From Bacteroidota bacterium (GTDB taxonomy: Bacteria; Bacteroidota; Bacteroidia; Flavobacteriales; BACL11), in contig JAOOLD010000002.1 in assembly GCA_028408365.1 (NCBI GenBank), positions 80,409-144,408 on the forward strand: a stretch of DNA of 64,000 bases. The letters are read 5' to 3'. Below are positions 3,257-60,513 of this stretch, piece after piece. Within the stretch, counting starts at the first letter, position 1; each line of letters begins with the position of its first letter. The notes beneath the pieces were generated by a model. That model made no database searches and was not told the origin of the DNA. It saw nothing but the letters and a program-made list of their open reading frames with translations. Position numbers and translations under genes: made by a program.

Positions 3257-4288
3257 TTGGACCCAAACGGAAATAAGTATTTATTATTTAATAAGCTCAG
3301 CCCTCAAGATGCTAAGAAAAAATTAGCAAGTGAAACATTTAAAAGAACAACTTTATCTTTTTACAAGTATGTTAAATTAAACGATATATCTCATTATAGA
3401 GACTATCTTTACAAAAAATGGGATAAATTAAAAATTCTTGGTCGTGTATATATTGCCACTGAGGGAATTAATGCTCAGATTAGTATTCCGAATCATAATA
3501 TTGAAAAATTCAAAGAGCAACTTTATGATGACAGATGCTTAAAAAATATTTCTTTAAAAGAAGCAATTGAAGAAAAAGAATCTTCATTTTTTAAGTTGAT
3601 AATTAAAATTAAAAAAAGAATAGTTGCTGATGGATTAACTGAAGTTGATTTTGACTCAAGCAATGTTGGAAATCATTTAAATGCAGATCAATGGAATGAT
3701 GCTATTGATAAAGGGGCTGTGATTGTTGATATGAGAAATCATTACGAAAGTGAAATAGGACATTTTAAAAATGCAATTCTTCCTCAATCAGAAACTTTTA
3801 AACAAGAACTGCCAATGGTAAAAGAATTGTTATCTGAGAATAAAAATGATAAAATTTTACTTTATTGCACCGGAGGAATTAGATGTGAAAAAGCTTCTGC
3901 TTACTTAAAACATAGTGGATTCATAGATGTTAATCAATTACACGGAGGCATAATAGATTATAAAAAACAGTTAATGGATAATCCAAAGCTTGAGAATAAA
4001 TTTATTGGTAAAAATTTTGTATTTGATGAAAGATTATCTGAAAAAATCTCTGAAGAAGTTATAAGTTTTTGTCATCAGTGCGGAAGTAAATGTGACACGC
4101 ATATAAATTGTAAAAATATGAGTTGTAACCTTTTATTTATTCAATGTAAAAAATGTAAAGAAAAGTTTAGTTCCTGTTGTTCAACTGAGTGTAAGAAGAT
4201 TATAGATCTGCCAGAAAATGAGCAAAAAAATCTCAGGCAAGGATTAATAAATAAAAAGAGATTTAATTCTCACAGACTCATAAACTAA
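3257..4288 (+). CDS. trhO: Rhodanese-domain tRNA uridine(34) hydroxylase (TrhO/YceA, UPF0176)
   Basis: SFYKY, GRVYIATEGINAQ, DMRNHYESEIGHF, YCTGGIRCEK, GKNFVFDER and a Cys-rich C-terminus. The TTG start is uncertain. Confidence 0.9.
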   Translation: MDPNGNKYLLFNKLSPQDAKKKLASETFKRTTLSFYKYVKLNDISHYRDYLYKKWDKLKILGRVYIATEGINAQISIPNHNIEKFKEQLYDDRCLKNISLKEAIEEKESSFFKLIIKIKKRIVADGLTEVDFDSSNVGNHLNADQWNDAIDKGAVIVDMRNHYESEIGHFKNAILPQSETFKQELPMVKELLSENKNDKILLYCTGGIRCEKASAYLKHSGFIDVNQLHGGIIDYKKQLMDNPKLENKFIGKNFVFDERLSEKISEEVISFCHQCGSKCDTHINCKNMSCNLLFIQCKKCKEKFSSCCSTECKKIIDLPENEQKNLRQGLINKKRFNSHRLIN

Positions 4289-38711: not shown

Positions 38712-39686
38712 GAATTTATCTTTTATGCTTTCTAATATTTCTATTATTTCACTTGCATTCTCAGATGAAACTAATTTAATTCTATGATCTTTAAAATGAG
38801 GTATGCCTCTGAAATAGTTTGTGTAGTGCCTTCTTGTTTCGAAAATTCCGAGTCTTTCGCCCTTCCATGCAATTGAATGTTTCAAATGTCTTTTACATAC
38901 CCTTACTCTATCTTCAATAGTTGGCTTAGAAATGGTTTCTTTGTTTTTTAAATAGCTTTTGATTTCATTAAAAATCCATGGATATCCAATTGCTGCTCTT
39001 CCAATCATTACTCCATCAATCCCATATTTTTTTTTCATCTCAAGGGCTTTTTCGCCAGAATTTATATCACCGTTACCAAATACAGGAATATGCATGCGTG
39101 GGTTTTTTTTTACCTCACCAATTAATGTCCAATCGGCTTCACCTTTATACATCTGTTTTCTAGTTCTTCCGTGTATAGATATTGCTTTAATTCCAACATC
39201 TTGTAATCTTTCAGCTACTTCAACAATATATTTACTATTTTCATCCCAGCCTAATCGGGTTTTTACAGTTACTGGCAATGAGGTTGATTTAACAATTTCT
39301 TTTGTCATTTTAACCATTTTTGGAATGTCTTGTAAAATACCTGCTCCAGCTCCTTTACACGCAACTTTTTTCACTGGGCATCCGTAATTTATATCAATTA
39401 TATCAGGATTAGCTTGTTCACAGATTGCAGTGGCTAATTTCATAGATTCTATGTTTCCCCCAAAAATTTGGATTCCAATTGGTCTTTCTTCGTCATATAT
39501 ATCCAGCTTCATAGTGCTTTTTTCTGCGTCCCTAATCAATCCCTCTGAGGAAATAAATTCAGTGTACATAATGTCAGCACCATTTTCTTTACAAATTGCT
39601 CTGAACGGAGGGTCACTAACATCCTCCATTGGAGCTAACATTAAAGGGAAGCTGCCTAAATTAATATTTTCTATTTTTACACTCAC
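38691..39686 (-). CDS. dusB: tRNA-dihydrouridine synthase B
   Basis: LAPMEDV, DINYGCP, VKTRLGW, IHGRT, GNGDI, MIGRAAIGYPW. Confidence 0.95.
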   Translation of the reverse strand: MSVKIENINLGSFPLMLAPMEDVSDPPFRAICKENGADIMYTEFISSEGLIRDAEKSTMKLDIYDEERPIGIQIFGGNIESMKLATAICEQANPDIIDINYGCPVKKVACKGAGAGILQDIPKMVKMTKEIVKSTSLPVTVKTRLGWDENSKYIVEVAERLQDVGIKAISIHGRTRKQMYKGEADWTLIGEVKKNPRMHIPVFGNGDINSGEKALEMKKKYGIDGVMIGRAAIGYPWIFNEIKSYLKNKETISKPTIEDRVRVCKRHLKHSIAWKGERLGIFETRRHYTNYFRGIPHFKDHRIKLVSSENASEIIEILESIKDKFSEFSFS

Positions 39687-56222: not shown

Positions 56223-58058
56223 ATGTGTGGAATTGTTTCTTACATCGGAAATAAAGATGCGTACCCAATAATAATAAAGGGACTTAAAAGATTAGAGTAC
56301 AGAGGTTATGATAGTGCAGGTATATGTTTGCTTAAAAACAGTTTAATATCATATAAATCCAAGGGAAAAGTCAAGGATTTAGAAAAAGAGTTTAATAAAA
56401 AACCCATTAGTTCATTTGTAGGAATAGGACATACAAGGTGGGCAACTCATGGTGAGCCAAACAAAACAAATGCTCACCCTCATTTGTCAAACTCTAAAAA
56501 TCTAGCTATAGTTCACAACGGAATAATTGAAAACTATGATTCAATAAGAAAACTATTGAAGAAAAAAGGTTATAAGTTTTATTCTGACACTGATACTGAA
56601 GTTTTAATTAACTTAATTGAATATGAACAAAAAAGTGAAAATCTTAGTTTATTTGAATCAGTAAGGTCGGCTCTTAAGCAGGTTATTGGAGCATATGCTA
56701 TTGTTGTAATGGAAAAAGATAATTTTAACGAAATTGTTGTTGCTAGAAAAGGTTCTCCATTAGTTATAGGAATTGAAAATGGAGAATATTATGTTGCTTC
56801 TGATGCTAGCCCAATAATTGAGTATACAAAAAATGTTGTTTATCTTAATGATGACGAAGTTGCAAGAATAAATATTAAATCAGGTTTACAAATTAAGACT
56901 GTAAGTAATAAGAAAGTTACTCCTTTTGTACAAGAGTTAGCATTATCAATTGAAGATATAGAAAAAGGAGGTTTTGATTATTTTATGTTAAAAGAAATTT
57001 ATGAGCAACCTAAGAGTATAAGATCCACTTTAAGAGGAAGAATCACAGCTCAAAATAAAATTAAATTAGCAGGTTTTAGAGACTTTGAGAAAAAAATTTT
57101 AAAAGCAAACAGATTTACAATCATTGCCTGTGGTACATCATGGCATGCTGGCTTAGTTGCATCATATTATTTTGAAAGCATAGCTAGAATTAATGTTGAT
57201 GTTCAGTATGCATCAGAGTTTAGGTATAGAAACCCAGTATTAAACGAAAATGATGTTGTGCTAAGTATTACTCAATCTGGTGAAACTGCAGATACTCTTG
57301 CCGCTCAAAAACTTGCAAAAAGTAGGGGAGCTATATCACTGGCTATATGCAATGTTGTTGGCTCAAGTATTGCCAGAGAAAATGATGGTGGAGCATATAC
57401 TCATGCTGGTCCTGAAATTGGAGTTGCCTCAACAAAAGCTTTCACTACTCAACTTACAATACTACTCTTAATCGCACTTAGATTAGGAAAAGAAAATTCT
57501 TCCATAAGAGATCGAGATTATCAAAGAATGTTGATTGAAATTCAGATGCTCCCATCAACATTAGAGGAATGTTTAAAAATTGATAAAAAAATAAAAAAAA
57601 TTTCTAAGGAGTTTATGAACTCAGAAAACTTCTTATATCTAGGAAGAGGTATGAACTTTCCAGTAGCTTTAGAAGGAGCTCTTAAGTTGAAAGAAATATC
57701 ATACATTCACGCTGAAGGGTATCCTGCAGCTGAAATGAAGCATGGCCCTATAGCTCTCATTGACGAAAAGATGCCAGTGGTAGTTATAGCAACAGAAGAA
57801 GAGCACTACACAAAAATTTTAAGCAATGCTCAAGAGGTGAAGTCAAGAGGAGGAAGAATTATTTCAATAGTTTTTGATGCTGATGAGTCAATATCTAGTA
57901 TTTCCGAGCATGTAATCAAAGTCCCTAAAGTAAACAAATACTTGTCTCCAATAATTTCTGTAATATCTCTTCAACTACTTTCTTATCACATTGCAGTTAT
58001 GAGAGGATGTGATGTTGATCAACCAAGGAACTTAGCTAAATCAGTTACGGTCGAATAG
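56223..58058 (+). CDS. glmS: Glutamine--fructose-6-phosphate aminotransferase
   Basis: MCGIV, LEYRGYDSAG, GHTRWATHG, QSGETAD, PRNLAKSVTVE. Confidence 0.98.
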   Translation: MCGIVSYIGNKDAYPIIIKGLKRLEYRGYDSAGICLLKNSLISYKSKGKVKDLEKEFNKKPISSFVGIGHTRWATHGEPNKTNAHPHLSNSKNLAIVHNGIIENYDSIRKLLKKKGYKFYSDTDTEVLINLIEYEQKSENLSLFESVRSALKQVIGAYAIVVMEKDNFNEIVVARKGSPLVIGIENGEYYVASDASPIIEYTKNVVYLNDDEVARINIKSGLQIKTVSNKKVTPFVQELALSIEDIEKGGFDYFMLKEIYEQPKSIRSTLRGRITAQNKIKLAGFRDFEKKILKANRFTIIACGTSWHAGLVASYYFESIARINVDVQYASEFRYRNPVLNENDVVLSITQSGETADTLAAQKLAKSRGAISLAICNVVGSSIARENDGGAYTHAGPEIGVASTKAFTTQLTILLLIALRLGKENSSIRDRDYQRMLIEIQMLPSTLEECLKIDKKIKKISKEFMNSENFLYLGRGMNFPVALEGALKLKEISYIHAEGYPAAEMKHGPIALIDEKMPVVVIATEEEHYTKILSNAQEVKSRGGRIISIVFDADESISSISEHVIKVPKVNKYLSPIISVISLQLLSYHIAVMRGCDVDQPRNLAKSVTVE

Positions 58059-58344
58059 AATTGAATCCGATTTTAGGATTAGAAAAATTCCTTAGTCAAG
58101 TTTTAAATTACTGTTATTGATTTTTAAGTGTTACAAGTCACTTTCAATTTTCCATCAAACACTATGAATTGGTTTCAATGTTGAATGTTAGAATACAACG
58201 ATTCCAACAAGTACTATCTATCTAATAGTACTACATTAATACATGTAATATTTCCATGAGTATATTCGATTTAATCGACTAAACCCAAACTTATGGGGGA
58301 GTTGTCGATTAGTAAATCAATACGTTTAAATCTAATTTTAGAAT

Positions 58345-58911
58345 TTAATTTTGAGTTTTTAAAAATTCGGAGTATTCATTGGAACCCATTGTCATACCTG
58401 AAATTAAACTTACACATTCAATTGTGATTTCAATTGATGAGATATTTTTTTTAAATATAAATTTTCTCCCATCATATGAGGTTAAACTGTTTTCATCTGA
58501 ATTAAAACATATATTACAAAATAAGTGATCACCCAATAGTTCTGAACAACTTATTCCAAATTTATCATAAGAAAAATCAAAATCAGATTTTGATAATGTA
58601 GTTTTTAATTCTCTACGATTTTCATGATAATTTTCTGGATGGATATTGTTTTTTGTCATATAATTTTCTTTTGTACAGTTACCTGTAACTTTATATTTGG
58701 TTTCTTCTAACCCATTATGACTACGATGTTTCTTTTTCTGAACATTTTCTATTCTACAATGTTTAACACAATATGTGTTAACAGACTCTTTATCTTTTAA
58801 ATAAAAAATTTTTTCATAGTCTTCTTTTTCATATTTGTGATGTTTAAGTTTTGTATCAACAATATTTCCTCCAAATATCGAAAATGTTATACCAAATAGA
58901 ATTTCTAACAT
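58345..58911 (-). CDS. Hypothetical alanine-free protein, possibly two fused small ORFs
   Basis: 188-aa ORF with no Ala; internal ATG at 58659 preceded by an A-rich sequence. Confidence 0.6.
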   Translation of the reverse strand: MLEILFGITFSIFGGNIVDTKLKHHKYEKEDYEKIFYLKDKESVNTYCVKHCRIENVQKKKHRSHNGLEETKYKVTGNCTKENYMTKNNIHPENYHENRRELKTTLSKSDFDFSYDKFGISCSELLGDHLFCNICFNSDENSLTSYDGRKFIFKKNISSIEITIECVSLISGMTMGSNEYSEFLKTQN

Positions 58912-58930
58912 ATATTAAAATCAAATATTT

Positions 58931-59140
58931 TTATTTAATCGTACATGTATCAACACCAAATAACTTGTAAATCATACAAGTACCAACAACAGAATTAAAT
59001 AATAGAATTCCACCAATTACACATAGGAAAATTGAATAGTTTGATTGACCTAAGAAAATTGGAGTTGGTAATAAAAATAGTGAAATGATAAAACGAACAA
59101 TTCGTTCTGATTTGTTTTGGTTTGTTGTAAAAATCTTCAT
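58931..59140 (-). CDS. DUF2892/YgaP-like small membrane protein (alanine-free)
   Basis: NQNKSERIVR, two TMs, GTCMIYKLFGVDTC; TATCTTTG box at 59167-59160. Confidence 0.8.
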   Translation of the reverse strand: MKIFTTNQNKSERIVRFIISLFLLPTPIFLGQSNYSIFLCVIGGILLFNSVVGTCMIYKLFGVDTCTIK

Positions 59141-59211
59141 TTTTAATGTTTTATAATATCAAAGATATGATATTATCATTGAGTTAGACCTTAACCGTGT
59201 TTTTGGTCTAT

Positions 59212-59509
59212 CTAATCTACCATTTTTATATAGAACGGATAGGTTCTATTTGTCCCACTTTCACCCATACTCCAATATATTATTACGTCTTCATTACTGA
59301 TAGAAGGTTTTGGTAATGGTTCTGTTCTTATTTCTGTATACTCCATTTCTCCAGTTACTTTATTAAATATTACCCCTCTTGTGTCACCTAAAGCATGAAA
59401 CTCAAATTTAGTTGTTGTTTCTGTTTTAGTTGATCCCATCATTTCTACTAATATTAGAATCCCACAGATTCCAGATAGTACTTCTGCTGTAAAGTTTTTT
59501 TAGAGACAT
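59212..59509 (-). pseudogene. Small exported/membrane hypothetical gene with a +1 frameshift in an A7 run
   Basis: ATG TCT CT-A7-CTTT. Removing one A gives MSLKNFTAEVLSGICGILILVEMMGSTK, continuous with ORF 59212-59442. Confidence 0.55.
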
Positions 59510-59571
59510 TTAATTTTAACTGAGATTATTTATATTAGATTTACATATCTTCAATTTCAAAATTTTATAAA

Positions 59572-60063
59572 ATGAACAAATATTTTTAATTTATTTTAAT
59601 TTTTGTGTTTTTATCGTGTGAGGAAGAAATTAATAATGAAGTTGGCACTAATTGTAACAACATATCTGAACCAATTATCGGAACTTGGCAATATTTTTAT
59701 GATGAATATTACAATCCAGACGATAATGAATGGTTTGGAGAGAGTGATGTACAATGTTGTATTATATTTAACTCAGACGGTACTTTTGAAGATTTGAATG
59801 GTGGTACTGGTGATGATAGTACTATTGAATCTTGGCAAAATTTAGGAAATGGAACATACAGACTAAATGTAACTTTTGGTGCTCTTAATGTTCCTTTTGA
59901 TGTAGAACATGACATAGAATTCTTTTGCTTTGACAATGTTGTGAGATATTCTACAATAGCTAGTCAAAGCTCTAATAATGCAGGGTTATCAGGATTTCAA
60001 TATTTACATAGAGAGAATTATAACTGGCAATCTTGTGATAATATCCCATTTAATTCTTTATAA
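59572..60063 (+). pseudogene. Lipocalin-like lipoprotein gene with an in-frame TAA in the signal peptide
   Basis: MNKYF*FILIFVFLSCEEE with TAA at 59587-59589; the mature part has IIGTWQY and FNSDGTF. Confidence 0.6.
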
Positions 60064-60092
60064 ATATTTGAGATAATTATATTTCAGAATAA

Positions 60093-60446
60093 TTAGTTTA
60101 CTACAATTCTTGCTTTCATATTTGGCAAATGGGGAGTGCAAACATAATAGTAAGTTTTCAATTCATTGGCTACAATATAGCCTGAACTACCAAAATCAAA
60201 TATAAATCCATTTTCAAGAGGTGTAGAGGAGCTTGAGTTATATGTTTCCTCGCTTACTTCAATAGCATTATGAGTACCACCGAGTTCAAAAAAAATTGTA
60301 TCACCTATATTGCAATTTAAAGTGCTAGGCACAAAATTTAATCCACTTGTTCTGATTATATTTTCAGTGTTTGAAGGCTCATTACTTTCCTTTGAACAAG
60401 AAAAAAACACTAACATTAGTGATGCAATTAGAATTTGATTTTTCAT
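60093..60446 (-). CDS. Plastocyanin/azurin-like type 1 copper lipoprotein
   Basis: Lipobox FFSC, FVPSTL, THNA, YYVCTPHLPNM (His/Cys/His/Met ligand set). Confidence 0.85.
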   Translation of the reverse strand: MKNQILIASLMLVFFSCSKESNEPSNTENIIRTSGLNFVPSTLNCNIGDTIFFELGGTHNAIEVSEETYNSSSSTPLENGFIFDFGSSGYIVANELKTYYYVCTPHLPNMKARIVVN

Positions 60447-60513
60447 TTTTTTATTTTAAGTTCAAATTTACGTTTAATTATTGTCTAATGTAATTATTTC
60501 ATATTTTTAGTTT

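Follow-up and report, generated by a model that had tools for sequence, protein, structure and literature searches.

A GpC-free tract at the 3' end of glmS in a Flavobacteriales genome and its apparent source in small, largely alanine-free integrative elements

Integrative elements based on large serine recombinases (LSRs), among them phages and ICEs with integrases of this type and the SCCmec cassettes with their Ccr recombinases, are characterised by a Resolvase, Recombinase and Zn-ribbon domain architecture, and insert site-specifically at the 3' end of a conserved gene, the target being restored upon integration. The integrases of the SSV1 type, which occur in archaeal fuselloviruses, are tyrosine recombinases that target tRNA genes; attP lies within their ORF, and integration leaves N- and C-terminal fragments of the gene at the two ends. 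The transposon Tn7 uses glmS as a safe-harbour target (attTn7) and carries defence genes in its cargo. Word avoidance confined to mobile DNA is seen in the palindrome avoidance of phages and plasmids and in the CpG and TpC depletion of viruses, and the known cases are, to our knowledge, partial depletions or concern longer sites. Small phage satellites with a serine integrase and a replication initiator of their own (PLE-like) have been described (PMC9638900).

The window, by which is meant the whole 64-kb stretch of DNA under analysis, contains 1751 GpC dinucleotides, none of which fall between positions 58037 and 59392 (1356 bp; A458 C197 G160 T541), where 23.2 would be expected from the base composition and where 18 CpG are present. 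Occurrences of GC bound the tract at 58035-36 and 59393-94 and follow it at 59486-87 and 59645-46, exactly as given in the original prediction, and the next longest GpC-free gap in the window spans 257 bp. Across the host assembly (G000; 1,469,910 bp in 54 contigs, 86 % complete) 39,027 GpC were counted, with observed/expected (O/E) ratios of 1.15 for GpC and 0.45 for CpG, and the gaps between them average 37.6 bp with a 99.9th percentile of 292 bp. No other GpC-free run in the 1.47 Mb genome is as long as the tract (1358 bp), the next measuring 469 bp, and this genome-wide count upholds the earlier expectation that such runs are not common in the host. When the gaps are assumed to be exponentially distributed, our own arithmetic places the chance of such a run at 39,027 x exp(-1358/37.6), or ~1e-11. 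The absence of GpC is real and far beyond chance. As had also been claimed, both complete ORFs of the tract (188 and 69 aa, the latter a DUF2892 protein) are alanine-free, where ~12 alanines would be expected in their 257 residues on the basis of the host proteome (4.7 % Ala), and the absence of GpC extends to non-coding DNA.

The host gene glmS (56223..58058, forward strand; 611 aa), which shows 67-82 % identity across related genomes, keeps GpC up to 58035-36, and the boundary of the tract coincides with a short att core formed by the last glmS codons (..S V T V E stop; 58041..58058, forward strand), the predicted integration target (attB). This core, with the consensus GTNACNGTNGARTRR in an alignment of 16 copies (A1), is common to glmS ends and to the interiors of the LSR genes of putatively circular elements, and each copy of the repeat in arrays elsewhere begins with it. 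It was found on the element side in seven loci (L059, L061, L064, L065, L068, L139 and L140) and on the glmS side in four (L051-L054). The core opens a conserved non-coding repeat of ~300 bp, termed R (58041..58339, forward strand), in which it is followed by a variable hairpin (~58063-58081) and 240 bp with several short palindromes. Mean column identity is 84 % over the 16 aligned copies, which span genera; R is multicopy in the arrays of other genomes and was matched in 27/91 further loci. Its role may be that of an origin, a promoter or a recombination accessory site. RNAalifold analysis of the 16 copies gave -21.6 kcal/mol, with compensatory change in 4/52 predicted pairs. No Rfam family matched R, with a single sub-threshold hit to rhtB (23 bits; cut-off 55) across positions 57800-59800, and the exact R motif is absent from IMG/VR. 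An interpretation of R as an antisense coding remnant was rejected, given stops in all three antisense frames.

The 188-aa ORF (58345..58911, reverse strand) encodes a lipoprotein-like protein with an N-terminal hydrophobic segment, and its shorter relatives have a lipoprotein-type signal peptide. At E<=1e-3 the database holds 187 relatives, and alignment A4 shows conservation of the C-terminal domain (~110 aa), including four of its cysteines. No Pfam family matched it over the curated cut-off, a protein atlas search gave nothing usable (best score 0.85), and neither this nor the other two window ORFs searched had matches in PHROGs, PADLOC or NCBIfam. A zinc-deaminase-like H-x-E...C-x-x-C spacing was dropped as a candidate feature, the His being Asn in most relatives. 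R and the 188-aa ORF move jointly as a module (58037-58931), which is 77-92 % identical in other genera, compared with 68-77 % for glmS there. The 69-aa YgaP-like membrane protein (58931..59140, reverse strand; PF11127, the YgaP-like transmembrane family and former DUF2892, E 5.5e-12) is encoded in a second GpC-free piece, distinct from this module. No DNA match for positions 58932-60057 was found in the 12 related loci searched, same-genus genomes among them. The GpC-free run stops at 59393, inside a 76-aa ORF with one alanine (59212..59442, reverse strand; no family match), and is followed by the distal, GpC-poor part of the variable region (59393..60092; 11 GpC in 700 bp), which contains a 152-aa lipoprotein-like ORF with three alanines (59605-60063, forward strand) and is probably older or unrelated cassette DNA. 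The conserved flank restarts at 60058-60093 in same-genus genomes (94-96 % identity), with a plastocyanin/azurin-like host gene beyond the hotspot (60093..60446, reverse strand; PF00127, E 7.6e-7) whose GpC content is normal (13 in 354 bp). The sequence passes directly from 58336 to 60093 in one RNA-library contig and from 59210 to 60073 in one DNA contig, weak evidence in that a single contig underlies each junction; the public contigs over the window are short unitigs, and neither the uncovered parts nor these two junctions are taken as evidence of absence or expression.

GpC-free islands of 0.7-5.5 kb, with between zero and three GpC, adjoin the glmS stop codon in 12 loci of other genomes, for example L017 (5020 bp, 0 GpC) and L015 (5393 bp, 3 GpC), and occur at this same position in related genomes and marine metagenomes. 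The arrays also hold normal-GpC cassettes, including a DsrE-like gene (10 GpC) and an HhaI-like restriction-modification (R-M) pair (L013; 20 and 12 GpC), of which the methylase resembles M.HhaI over its full length (E 2e-112) and the endonuclease R.HhaI (E 1e-20). In this pair the glmS hotspot harbours a circulating R-M system whose cleavage site contains GC, a point in favour of restriction-type pressure. These comparisons show the tract to be the glmS-proximal part of a hypervariable insertion hotspot, made of decayed cassettes. No recombinase remnant was detected in the window by tblastn and G000 yielded no LSR match at E<=1e-10, and the window is linked to the elements described below because of the common att core, R and composition.

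The source elements are very probably small integrative elements (~6-12 kb) that belong to uncultured marine Flavobacteriales and to Bacteroidota related to them, a judgement which covers their identity and mode of integration jointly. Complete elements encode an LSR of ~720 aa, and the full-length LSRs (L061, L139 and P0001-P0027) comprise Resolvase, Recombinase and Zn-ribbon domains (PF00239, PF07508 and PF13408). The recombinases of the elements have diverged to 33-68 % identity and all are alanine-free, while LSR matches at E<=1e-10 occur in 20/68 genomes of the family. A small serine recombinase recurs in the elements, and a rolling-circle Rep (PF23343, REP_ORF2-G2P) was identified over the cut-off in six of them (E 4e-9 to 4e-7); no rolling-circle origin or nick site was identified in the elements or in G000. 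The terminal repeats of the assembled contigs L061 (6297 bp), L139 (7404 bp) and L068 (6834 bp) are consistent with a circular form. The cargo, which includes a type I R-M system, HNH nucleases and PD-(D/E)XK nucleases, looks like a set of defence genes. Element DNA had no match among 50,697 phage records, the LSR reached at most 28.5 % identity among 72,556 plasmid records, and a search of IMG/VR did not recover two further alanine-free LSR clades, P0114 and P0086. The P0048 LSR was matched in 1/401 sampled Bacteroidota genomes (32 % identity, normal GpC), and for P0114 only glmS-type copies were matched, in 4/401 Flavobacteriales genomes.

The attP site lies inside the LSR coding sequence, ~110-130 codons before the stop, and mimics the last glmS codons. 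Integration would restore the glmS end and split the recombinase gene, as is shown or strongly suggested by the integrated copies: an N-terminal part (~600 aa) would adjoin glmS and read antisense into it, with the C-terminal part at the far end of the element. In L051, L053 and L070 the LSR N-part ends in ..STVTD(F/L)AKFLG, the antisense of the glmS end, and in L070 the C-part is located at the opposite end, after an ITVE-stop mimic and before the host flank, such that both junctions are visible. Repeated insertion and decay would give rise to the cassette arrays.

Fourteen contigs picked by LSR homology, and not by composition (96.7 kb in total), contain 11 GpC, compared with ~2570 at host density. 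By codon phase, 3/2/0 GpC were observed against 955/348/359 expected, which amounts to two NGC codons instead of 348 and no GpC across codon junctions instead of 359. Where there is no GpC the GCN codons are impossible and proteins are thus without alanine: 107/112 ORFs of >=60 aa contain none, a 998-aa HsdR among these. Among the metagenome loci, 23/80 lack any GpC and 59/80 have a GpC-free run of >=1 kb, and whole contigs of 6-11 kb without GpC exist, three of them with terminal repeats. The G+C content of element DNA is 21-30 %, and the relative abundance of CpG (0.44-0.56) is host-like. In six distinct copies of the R and 188-aa module, C is among the bases of polymorphic sites after G in 1/11 cases, compared with 46/94 elsewhere, and G is among those before C in 0/9, compared with 44/96 elsewhere. 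The core genes, cargo and intergenic DNA of this element lineage are thereby shown to be essentially without GpC. The pattern recurs in protein collection sources (ENA, JGI/IMG, NCBI and Logan), differently named metagenome contigs, MAGs and isolate assemblies; no description of GpC-free or alanine-free elements was found in the titles and abstracts of the literature searched. The alanine-free state is scattered on the recombinase tree, with at least 12-16 changes among 117 sequences, and the sampled genomes of Flavobacteriales and Bacteroidota did not yield all of the alanine-free clades. The sequence evidence supports derivation of the tract from a gene pool that has long been GpC-free and is foreign to the host chromosome. 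This part of the original prediction, a donor long free of GpC, is borne out by the start at the att core, the homologous GpC-free cassettes, the GpC-free elements and their divergent alanine-free recombinases.

The full explanation, which joins identity, integration and cause, is given a probability of roughly 0.55. As regards the cause, our tentative choice is strong selection on DNA in an extrachromosomal or transfer phase, with a GpC-recognising, nuclease-type activity as the likeliest agent. This could be a restriction-like host defence, or a nuclease with which a competing phage or element destroys DNA that contains GpC, and a GpC-targeting defence is our preferred, if only possible, reading. 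It is in the mobile phase that the constraint operates, and probably at the level of DNA, as is suggested by the coincidence of the tract boundary with the att core, the tolerance of the arrays for normal-GpC cassettes, the GpC-free divergent-promoter regions and the scarcity of GpC-forming variants among the polymorphic sites of the module copies. As in restriction avoidance, short palindromes are under-represented in elements relative to the host, with O/E values of 0.37 vs 0.98 for CTAG, 0.34 vs 0.71 for GATC, 0.44 vs 0.79 for CATG and 0.52 vs 0.84 for CCGG in 197 kb of element DNA that was chosen as GpC-free runs and in which only words without GC are informative; GTAC is also lower in elements than in the host, and TCGA is not avoided (O/E 0.94). 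Known restriction sites of 4-6 bp cannot account for the loss of GpC in every context. Neither the window nor the minimal 6.3-kb element nor the host yielded a nuclease, methylase or deaminase specific for GpC. There is furthermore no cytosine methyltransferase family over the cut-off in the 86 % complete host assembly (PF00145 without a match, PF01555 below the cut-off), and classical methylation-protected GpC restriction in this host is therefore unsupported; PF00145 was matched at E<=0.001 in 10/24 other genomes of the family that were searched, although such matches do not disclose the specificity of the enzyme. On a broader view, for which the odds appear even, there is a marine mobilome with a vocabulary of 15 dinucleotides and a proteome of 19 amino acids, driven by a widespread activity that recognises bare GpC. 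Hosts, phages or rival elements would then supply the driver in the form of a nuclease, a deaminase or an RNase, and the alanine-free state, entered or left at least 12 times among serine-recombinase lineages, would reflect a pressure general to the habitat and not a quirk of one element.

A mutational origin, as the original prediction had proposed in the form of C5 methylation and deamination, is unlikely. GpC would be converted to GpT/ApC, either by C5-methylation and subsequent deamination or by a GpC deaminase acting on the single-stranded rolling-circle intermediate, at a rate above that at which GpC is regained, with the proteins adapting to the change. The Rep encoded by the elements makes a single-stranded phase plausible, GC-context deaminase toxins exist, and the scattered alanine-free state fits a pressure met repeatedly. 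The relative abundance of GT/AC does rise, from 0.79 in the flanks to 1.03 in the islands, but this excess is no larger than a proportional redistribution of the successors of G, with GA/TC (1.01 to 1.18) and GG/CC (1.19 to 1.42) rising as well. The alanine positions of normal recombinases are occupied in alanine-free sisters mostly by Ser (19.8 %) or Lys (12.5 %), followed by Thr (8.9 %), Gly (6.7 %) and Val (5.4 %), and comparison with control positions (Ser 16.2 %, Glu 10.1 %, Val 9.7 %, Lys 9.2 %, Thr 8.9 %) reveals no Val/Thr excess, at 32-45 % identity, a distance over which an old footprint may have been lost. Destructive hypermutation sits poorly with the long intact ORFs and the deep divergence, and the searches yielded no deaminase. 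Other GpC-free islands and contigs, for which the prediction had called, were found, and the complete elements among them encode an LSR.

Immunity at the level of RNA, whereby transcripts without GC would escape a GC-specific endoribonuclease (an mRNA-interferase toxin or a collateral defence RNase) that silences host or phage expression, is improbable. Since GC reads identically on both strands, its exclusion from transcripts of either strand would look the same in DNA; no codon phase is spared, which is what the action of an RNase would demand, and toxins specific for GCU are known. Against this, eight divergent-promoter intergenic regions (1536 bp), partly expected to be untranscribed, contain no GpC where 13-15 are expected, together with 10 CpG, although these regions make only a weak case for a constraint on DNA, as a small circle may be transcribed by read-through. 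No RNase candidate was found in the minimal element, and a search for the MqsR family, which gave no host match, is uninformative in that it was also silent in 14/14 control genomes.

A process specific to the locus downstream of glmS, such as a local mutator or repair bias that strips GpC, is very improbable: every chromosomal island found does sit at this one locus, but contigs that are free and terminally redundant, and in which the recombinase is intact, lack GpC off any chromosome, normal-GpC cassettes (the HhaI-like pair and the DsrE-like gene) lie within the arrays at the locus, and the boundary at the att core is sharp. Least probable of all are an artefact of assembly, a chance effect of AT-rich composition and selection against alanine itself (e.g. 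to dispense with tRNA-Ala or AlaRS), readings which the alanine-free proteins and low G+C content might suggest, but NGC codons, codon junctions and non-coding DNA are equally GpC-free, CpG persists at its host-like level and the pattern occurs in records of many sources.

Selection by a GpC-recognising activity would suggest a hitherto unrecognised, dinucleotide-specific selective agent in ocean bacteria and, if found, a new kind of immunity or counter-immunity, with the enzyme potentially of use as a tool in the way that the GpC methylase M.CviPI is used already. The elements also represent a natural experiment in reduced amino-acid alphabets, in that alanine is missing from recombinases, nucleases, methylase subunits and a 998-aa helicase-nuclease subunit, all of which appear intact. 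Filtering metagenomes for zero GpC extracts this mobilome trivially and with high specificity, and the recombinases combine a target that is defined and conserved (the glmS 3' end) with an unusual design in which integration splits the gene.

Among the systems outlined at the outset, the PLE-like satellites (PMC9638900) resemble the elements in that both are small, encode an LSR and a replication initiator of their own, and carry cargo of a defence-like kind. A PHROGs search of 35 ORFs recovered an integrase/invertase, a membrane-flanked-domain protein and two function-unassigned families, and detected no structural, packaging, capsid-redirecting or helper phage genes, and identity as a phage satellite is therefore not supported. 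Tn7 shares the glmS safe harbour and defence cargo, but here the crossover falls inside the last glmS codons, not downstream of the stop; a Tn7-like identity is not supported, with no Tns-type family among the Pfam hits of the island and element ORFs scanned. Nor do the arrays fit the description of integron cassette arrays, since the recombinases are of the serine type and the unit is the 300-bp R with a recombinase C-terminal fragment, not attC. Palindrome avoidance and the CpG/TpC depletion of viruses are alike in being confined to mobile DNA, whereas here a whole dinucleotide is near-absolutely excluded in all contexts and codon phases, with the loss of one amino acid. The SSV1-type integrases share the position of attP inside the integrase ORF and gene fragments that mark past insertions, but the present elements are bacterial, use a serine recombinase and target glmS. 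With the LSR integrative elements there are several features in common: the domain architecture, an attP/attB core in common and, in L070, both junctions were found in related elements, and integration is predicted to occur site-specifically at a conserved gene 3' end that is restored; the small recombinase of the elements also resembles the N-terminal part of SCCmec CcrB (E 6e-44, below the model cut-off). Unlike those systems, the whole element is essentially without GpC and alanine, a rolling-circle Rep takes the place of phage or conjugation modules, and attP lies within the recombinase gene, which would be split on integration.

GpC is wholly absent from 1356 bp of the window (58037-59392; 0 observed versus 23 expected from base composition), in which 18 CpG are retained. 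The original prediction of a GpC-free tract encoding alanine-free proteins is confirmed in full, with the GC dinucleotides placed at 58035-36, 59393-94, 59486-87 and 59645-46 being exact, and both complete ORFs within the tract (188 aa and 69 aa, the latter a YgaP-like/DUF2892 membrane protein) lacking alanine. The rest of the window contains 1751 GpC, with a next-longest GpC-free gap of 257 bp. Long GpC-free runs are not common in the host: across the whole assembly (1.47 Mb in 54 contigs; 30.4 % G+C; GpC O/E 1.15, CpG O/E 0.45) the second-longest run measures 469 bp, with 292 bp as the 99.9th percentile of gap length, and the tract is thus a unique outlier in this genome. The chance of such a run is estimated at ~1e-11, assuming exponentially distributed gaps. 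The tract boundary coincides with an att core, which heads a conserved non-coding repeat of ~300 bp (R; 58041-58339), followed by the 188-aa gene (58345-58911, reverse strand), the DUF2892 gene and other variable DNA up to 60092, with no recombinase remnant found in the window. The tract can be firmly considered as cassette debris from a GpC-free family of integrative elements targeting the 3' end of glmS.

When the region 57500-60500 was searched against 60 related genomes, glmS was only ~67-82 % identical to its relatives, and R (starting 17 nt before the glmS stop codon) together with the 188-aa gene was 80-94 % identical in other genera, with several R copies per genome. GpC-free tracts start at the glmS stop in all fetched loci, with islands of 5020 bp (L017; 0 GpC), 5393 bp (L015; 3 GpC) and 3633 bp (L013; 1 GpC), and of 0.7-1.5 kb in the other loci. 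The relative abundance of GpC is 0.02 in 24.8 kb of pooled island DNA versus 1.26 in 82 kb of flanks, that of CpG is unchanged (0.56 versus 0.51), and nearly all island ORFs contain no alanine. Among named records, chromosomal copies occur in uncultured marine Flavobacteriales, Cryomorphaceae, Crocinitomicaceae, Flavobacteriaceae and other Bacteroidota bins, with the host DNA of some copies reaching 41 % G+C. Contigs from four public marine runs of different studies match glmS until window position 58042-58058 and then part ways, the pattern that an insertion hotspot would produce at the population level; one public contig connects position 58336 to 60093. At locus L052 (G010:C13), the att core is found at 4255 (forward strand) and again at position 2428 of the reverse strand; the core and next 50 bp form two inverted copies flanking a GpC-poor, though not GpC-free, island, which may reflect inversion by a recombinase.

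Scanning of metagenome contigs yielded eighty loci, with three more from IMG/VR. GpC is wholly absent in 23/80 metagenome loci and a GpC-free run of at least 1 kb occurs in 59/80. Whole contigs without a single GpC include L060 (10,661 bp; 171 expected), L103 (9651 bp; 183 expected), L059 (8091 bp) and L139 (7404 bp). Terminal direct repeats in L139, L061 (6297 bp) and L068 (6834 bp; 4 GpC) are consistent with assemblies of circles. Recurrent element genes encode a large serine recombinase (LSR), a small serine recombinase, a rolling-circle Rep (PF23343), a protein of ~80 aa and a coiled-coil protein. The cargo includes a complete type I R-M system, with a 998-aa HsdR devoid of alanine, PD-(D/E)XK and HNH nucleases matching the candidate defence families PDC-S26 and PDC-S18, an ExoIII-like nuclease and numerous MORN-repeat lipoproteins. 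The type I operon at L103:4684-9650 (HsdR 998 aa, HsdS 435 aa and an HsdM fragment) contains neither alanine nor GpC. No phage structural genes were found among the element ORFs, nor any similar records among the phage or plasmid records searched. The 188-aa protein is part of a marine family of very high abundance (including P0202-P0321; 187 clusters at E≤1e-3, certain of which have hundreds of members), which shares a domain of ~110 aa with four conserved cysteines and consists mostly of lipoproteins of 122-139 aa; some members are encoded on Mb-size contigs.

Every R copy is headed by a mimic of the glmS terminus (last codons V T V E stop); a variable hairpin comes next, and then conserved non-coding DNA. 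Internal recombinase sites and glmS ends have the core GTNACNGTNGARTRR in common. ORFs leading antisense out of this mimic ("..NHSTVT..") represent C-terminal LSR fragments. The full-length LSRs (710-741 aa; Resolvase, Recombinase and Zn-ribbon domains) carry the "STVT" stretch ~110-130 residues from the C-terminus, and attP, the internal site, therefore lies inside the recombinase gene. Intact LSR genes with an internal attP are found in L059, L061 and L139. On integration the gene is split: an N-part of ~600 aa remains beside glmS, and the other ~110-130 aa, the C-part, come to lie at the far end. The attP position is confirmed by three integrated copies, where N-parts (L051:5048-6913, L053:7472-9325 and L070:9138-10958) adjoin glmS on the opposite strand, comprise about 600-620 aa and terminate in ..STVTD(F/L)AKFLG, the antisense translation of the glmS end. 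L070 is a complete integrated element of ~10.85 kb with one internal GpC; at its far end the C-part (L070:~100-510) is preceded by an I T V E stop mimic, and the mimic in turn by GpC-containing host flank. The C-part shows a weak second Recombinase-domain match and may act by itself. Recombinase matches occur in 20/68 genomes of the family, mostly as just C-terminal fragments at cassette ends, suggesting that the arrays downstream of glmS are what successive insertions and their decay left behind.

The glmS-type recombinases share 33-68 % identity, and alanine is absent from 12/12 examined. Searched exhaustively with HMMER, a set of 1.84 billion representative proteins contained 121 relatives (E≤1e-30). 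With shorter fragments left out, the hits that reached 480 aa and seven earlier sequences gave 117 rows, with three or fewer alanines in 47 and more than three in 70. On a FastTree phylogeny with alanine masked, all 15 rows of the glmS clade are alanine-free. The tree as a whole requires at least 16 changes of alanine state, at least 12 of them forced by well-supported branches (shuffled labels average 37); compositional attraction would, if anything, reduce this count. The alanine-free state has therefore arisen or disappeared on many occasions, and some recombinases are intermediate, with 4-10 alanines. Many remoter serine recombinases from metagenomes (P0038-P0145; 25-32 % identical, 518-639 aa) also lack alanine, with no hosts of these other alanine-free clades found among ~800 sampled Bacteroidota and Flavobacteriales genomes.

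Fourteen contigs (96.7 kb), selected by recombinase homology rather than composition, contain 11 GpC versus ~2570 at host density. In their seventy-one ORFs of at least 100 aa, GpC is almost absent at codon positions 1-2, which specify alanine (3 observed, 955 expected), at positions 2-3 (2 versus 348) and across codon junctions (0 versus 359). The rule therefore acts on nucleotides, with the lack of alanine as a consequence. Residual GpCs are scattered singletons with no common context. Among six distinct copies of the R and 188-aa module, a small sample of related copies, variable sites avoid creating GpC (1/11 versus 46/94, and 0/9 versus 44/96). The glmS arrays include cassettes with normal GpC, so the chromosomal locus itself does not remove the dinucleotide. 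One such cassette (L013:12192-14030; G018:C16) encodes an HhaI-like R-M pair, probably specific for GCGC given the matches to M.HhaI (E 2e-112, full length) and R.HhaI (E 1e-20). The rule appears to be enforced during the mobile phase, probably on the element DNA, and apparently strongly, since exclusion is near-absolute across deep divergence.

Avoidance of short palindromes is the usual mark of restriction pressure, and CTAG (O/E 0.37 versus 0.98 in the host), GATC (0.34 versus 0.71), CATG (0.44 versus 0.79) and CCGG (0.52 versus 0.84) are depleted in the elements. As known sites of 4-6 bp cannot explain GpC loss in every context, and TCGA is not avoided, a single agent recognising GpC itself is favoured, tentatively and with a probability of roughly one in three. 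Such an agent may be a nuclease, encoded either by the host for defence or by a phage or competing element, which would destroy GpC-containing DNA and leave the GpC-free element to survive. R-M systems predicted to cut GC-containing sites travel in the same glmS hotspot. In 197 kb of pooled GpC-free DNA, CNAG/CTNG words (CCAG, CAAG, CGAG, CTAG) are also scarce (O/E 0.37-0.56), as is the CAG/CTG trinucleotide (0.73 versus 1.13 in the host).

A GpC-context deaminase acting on rolling-circle single strands is a less likely cause. If GpC were lost by deamination, GpT/ApC should be in excess and alanine replaced by valine or threonine, as the original prediction had anticipated. GT/AC does rise from 0.79 to 1.03, but GA/TC and GG/CC rise too, approximately as expected from plain redistribution of G successors in more AT-rich DNA. 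Across 316 alanine positions in 18 recombinase pairs, each of an alanine-free and an alanine-containing member (32-45 % identical), alanine aligns mainly with serine (19.8 %), lysine (12.5 %), threonine (8.9 %), glycine (6.7 %) and valine (5.4 %), the values for valine and threonine in 18 control pairs being 9.7 % and 8.9 %. A footprint of deamination is thus missing, in that GT/AC does not rise specifically and valine and threonine are not in excess, though an old footprint could have been erased with time. As for the suggested cytosine methylation, no C5 or N4 cytosine methylase family scored above cut-off in the host assembly (86 % complete), whose methylases are of the N6-adenine type only. 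Clear DNA methylases there are limited to two adjoining N6-adenine methylase genes (G000:C13:13072-15470; PF02384, E 7e-106 and 4e-83). A GC-specific RNase is more doubtful still, with the intergenic regions between divergent genes (n=8, 1536 bp; 0 GpC versus 13-15 expected) mildly favouring a constraint on DNA over one on mRNA. Four further readings, namely a local mutator, selection on alanine itself, chance and artefact, conflict with the data.

At the level of abstracts, the literature searched describes neither GpC-free or alanine-free mobile elements nor glmS-targeting serine-recombinase elements of Flavobacteriia. LSR integrative elements are a familiar type, to which the present elements belong. 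The splitting of the recombinase gene on integration resembles that of the SSV1-type archaeal integrases, whose gene is likewise split. That a varied natural gene pool should exclude one dinucleotide almost totally, and with it one common amino acid, has no evident place among the known categories.
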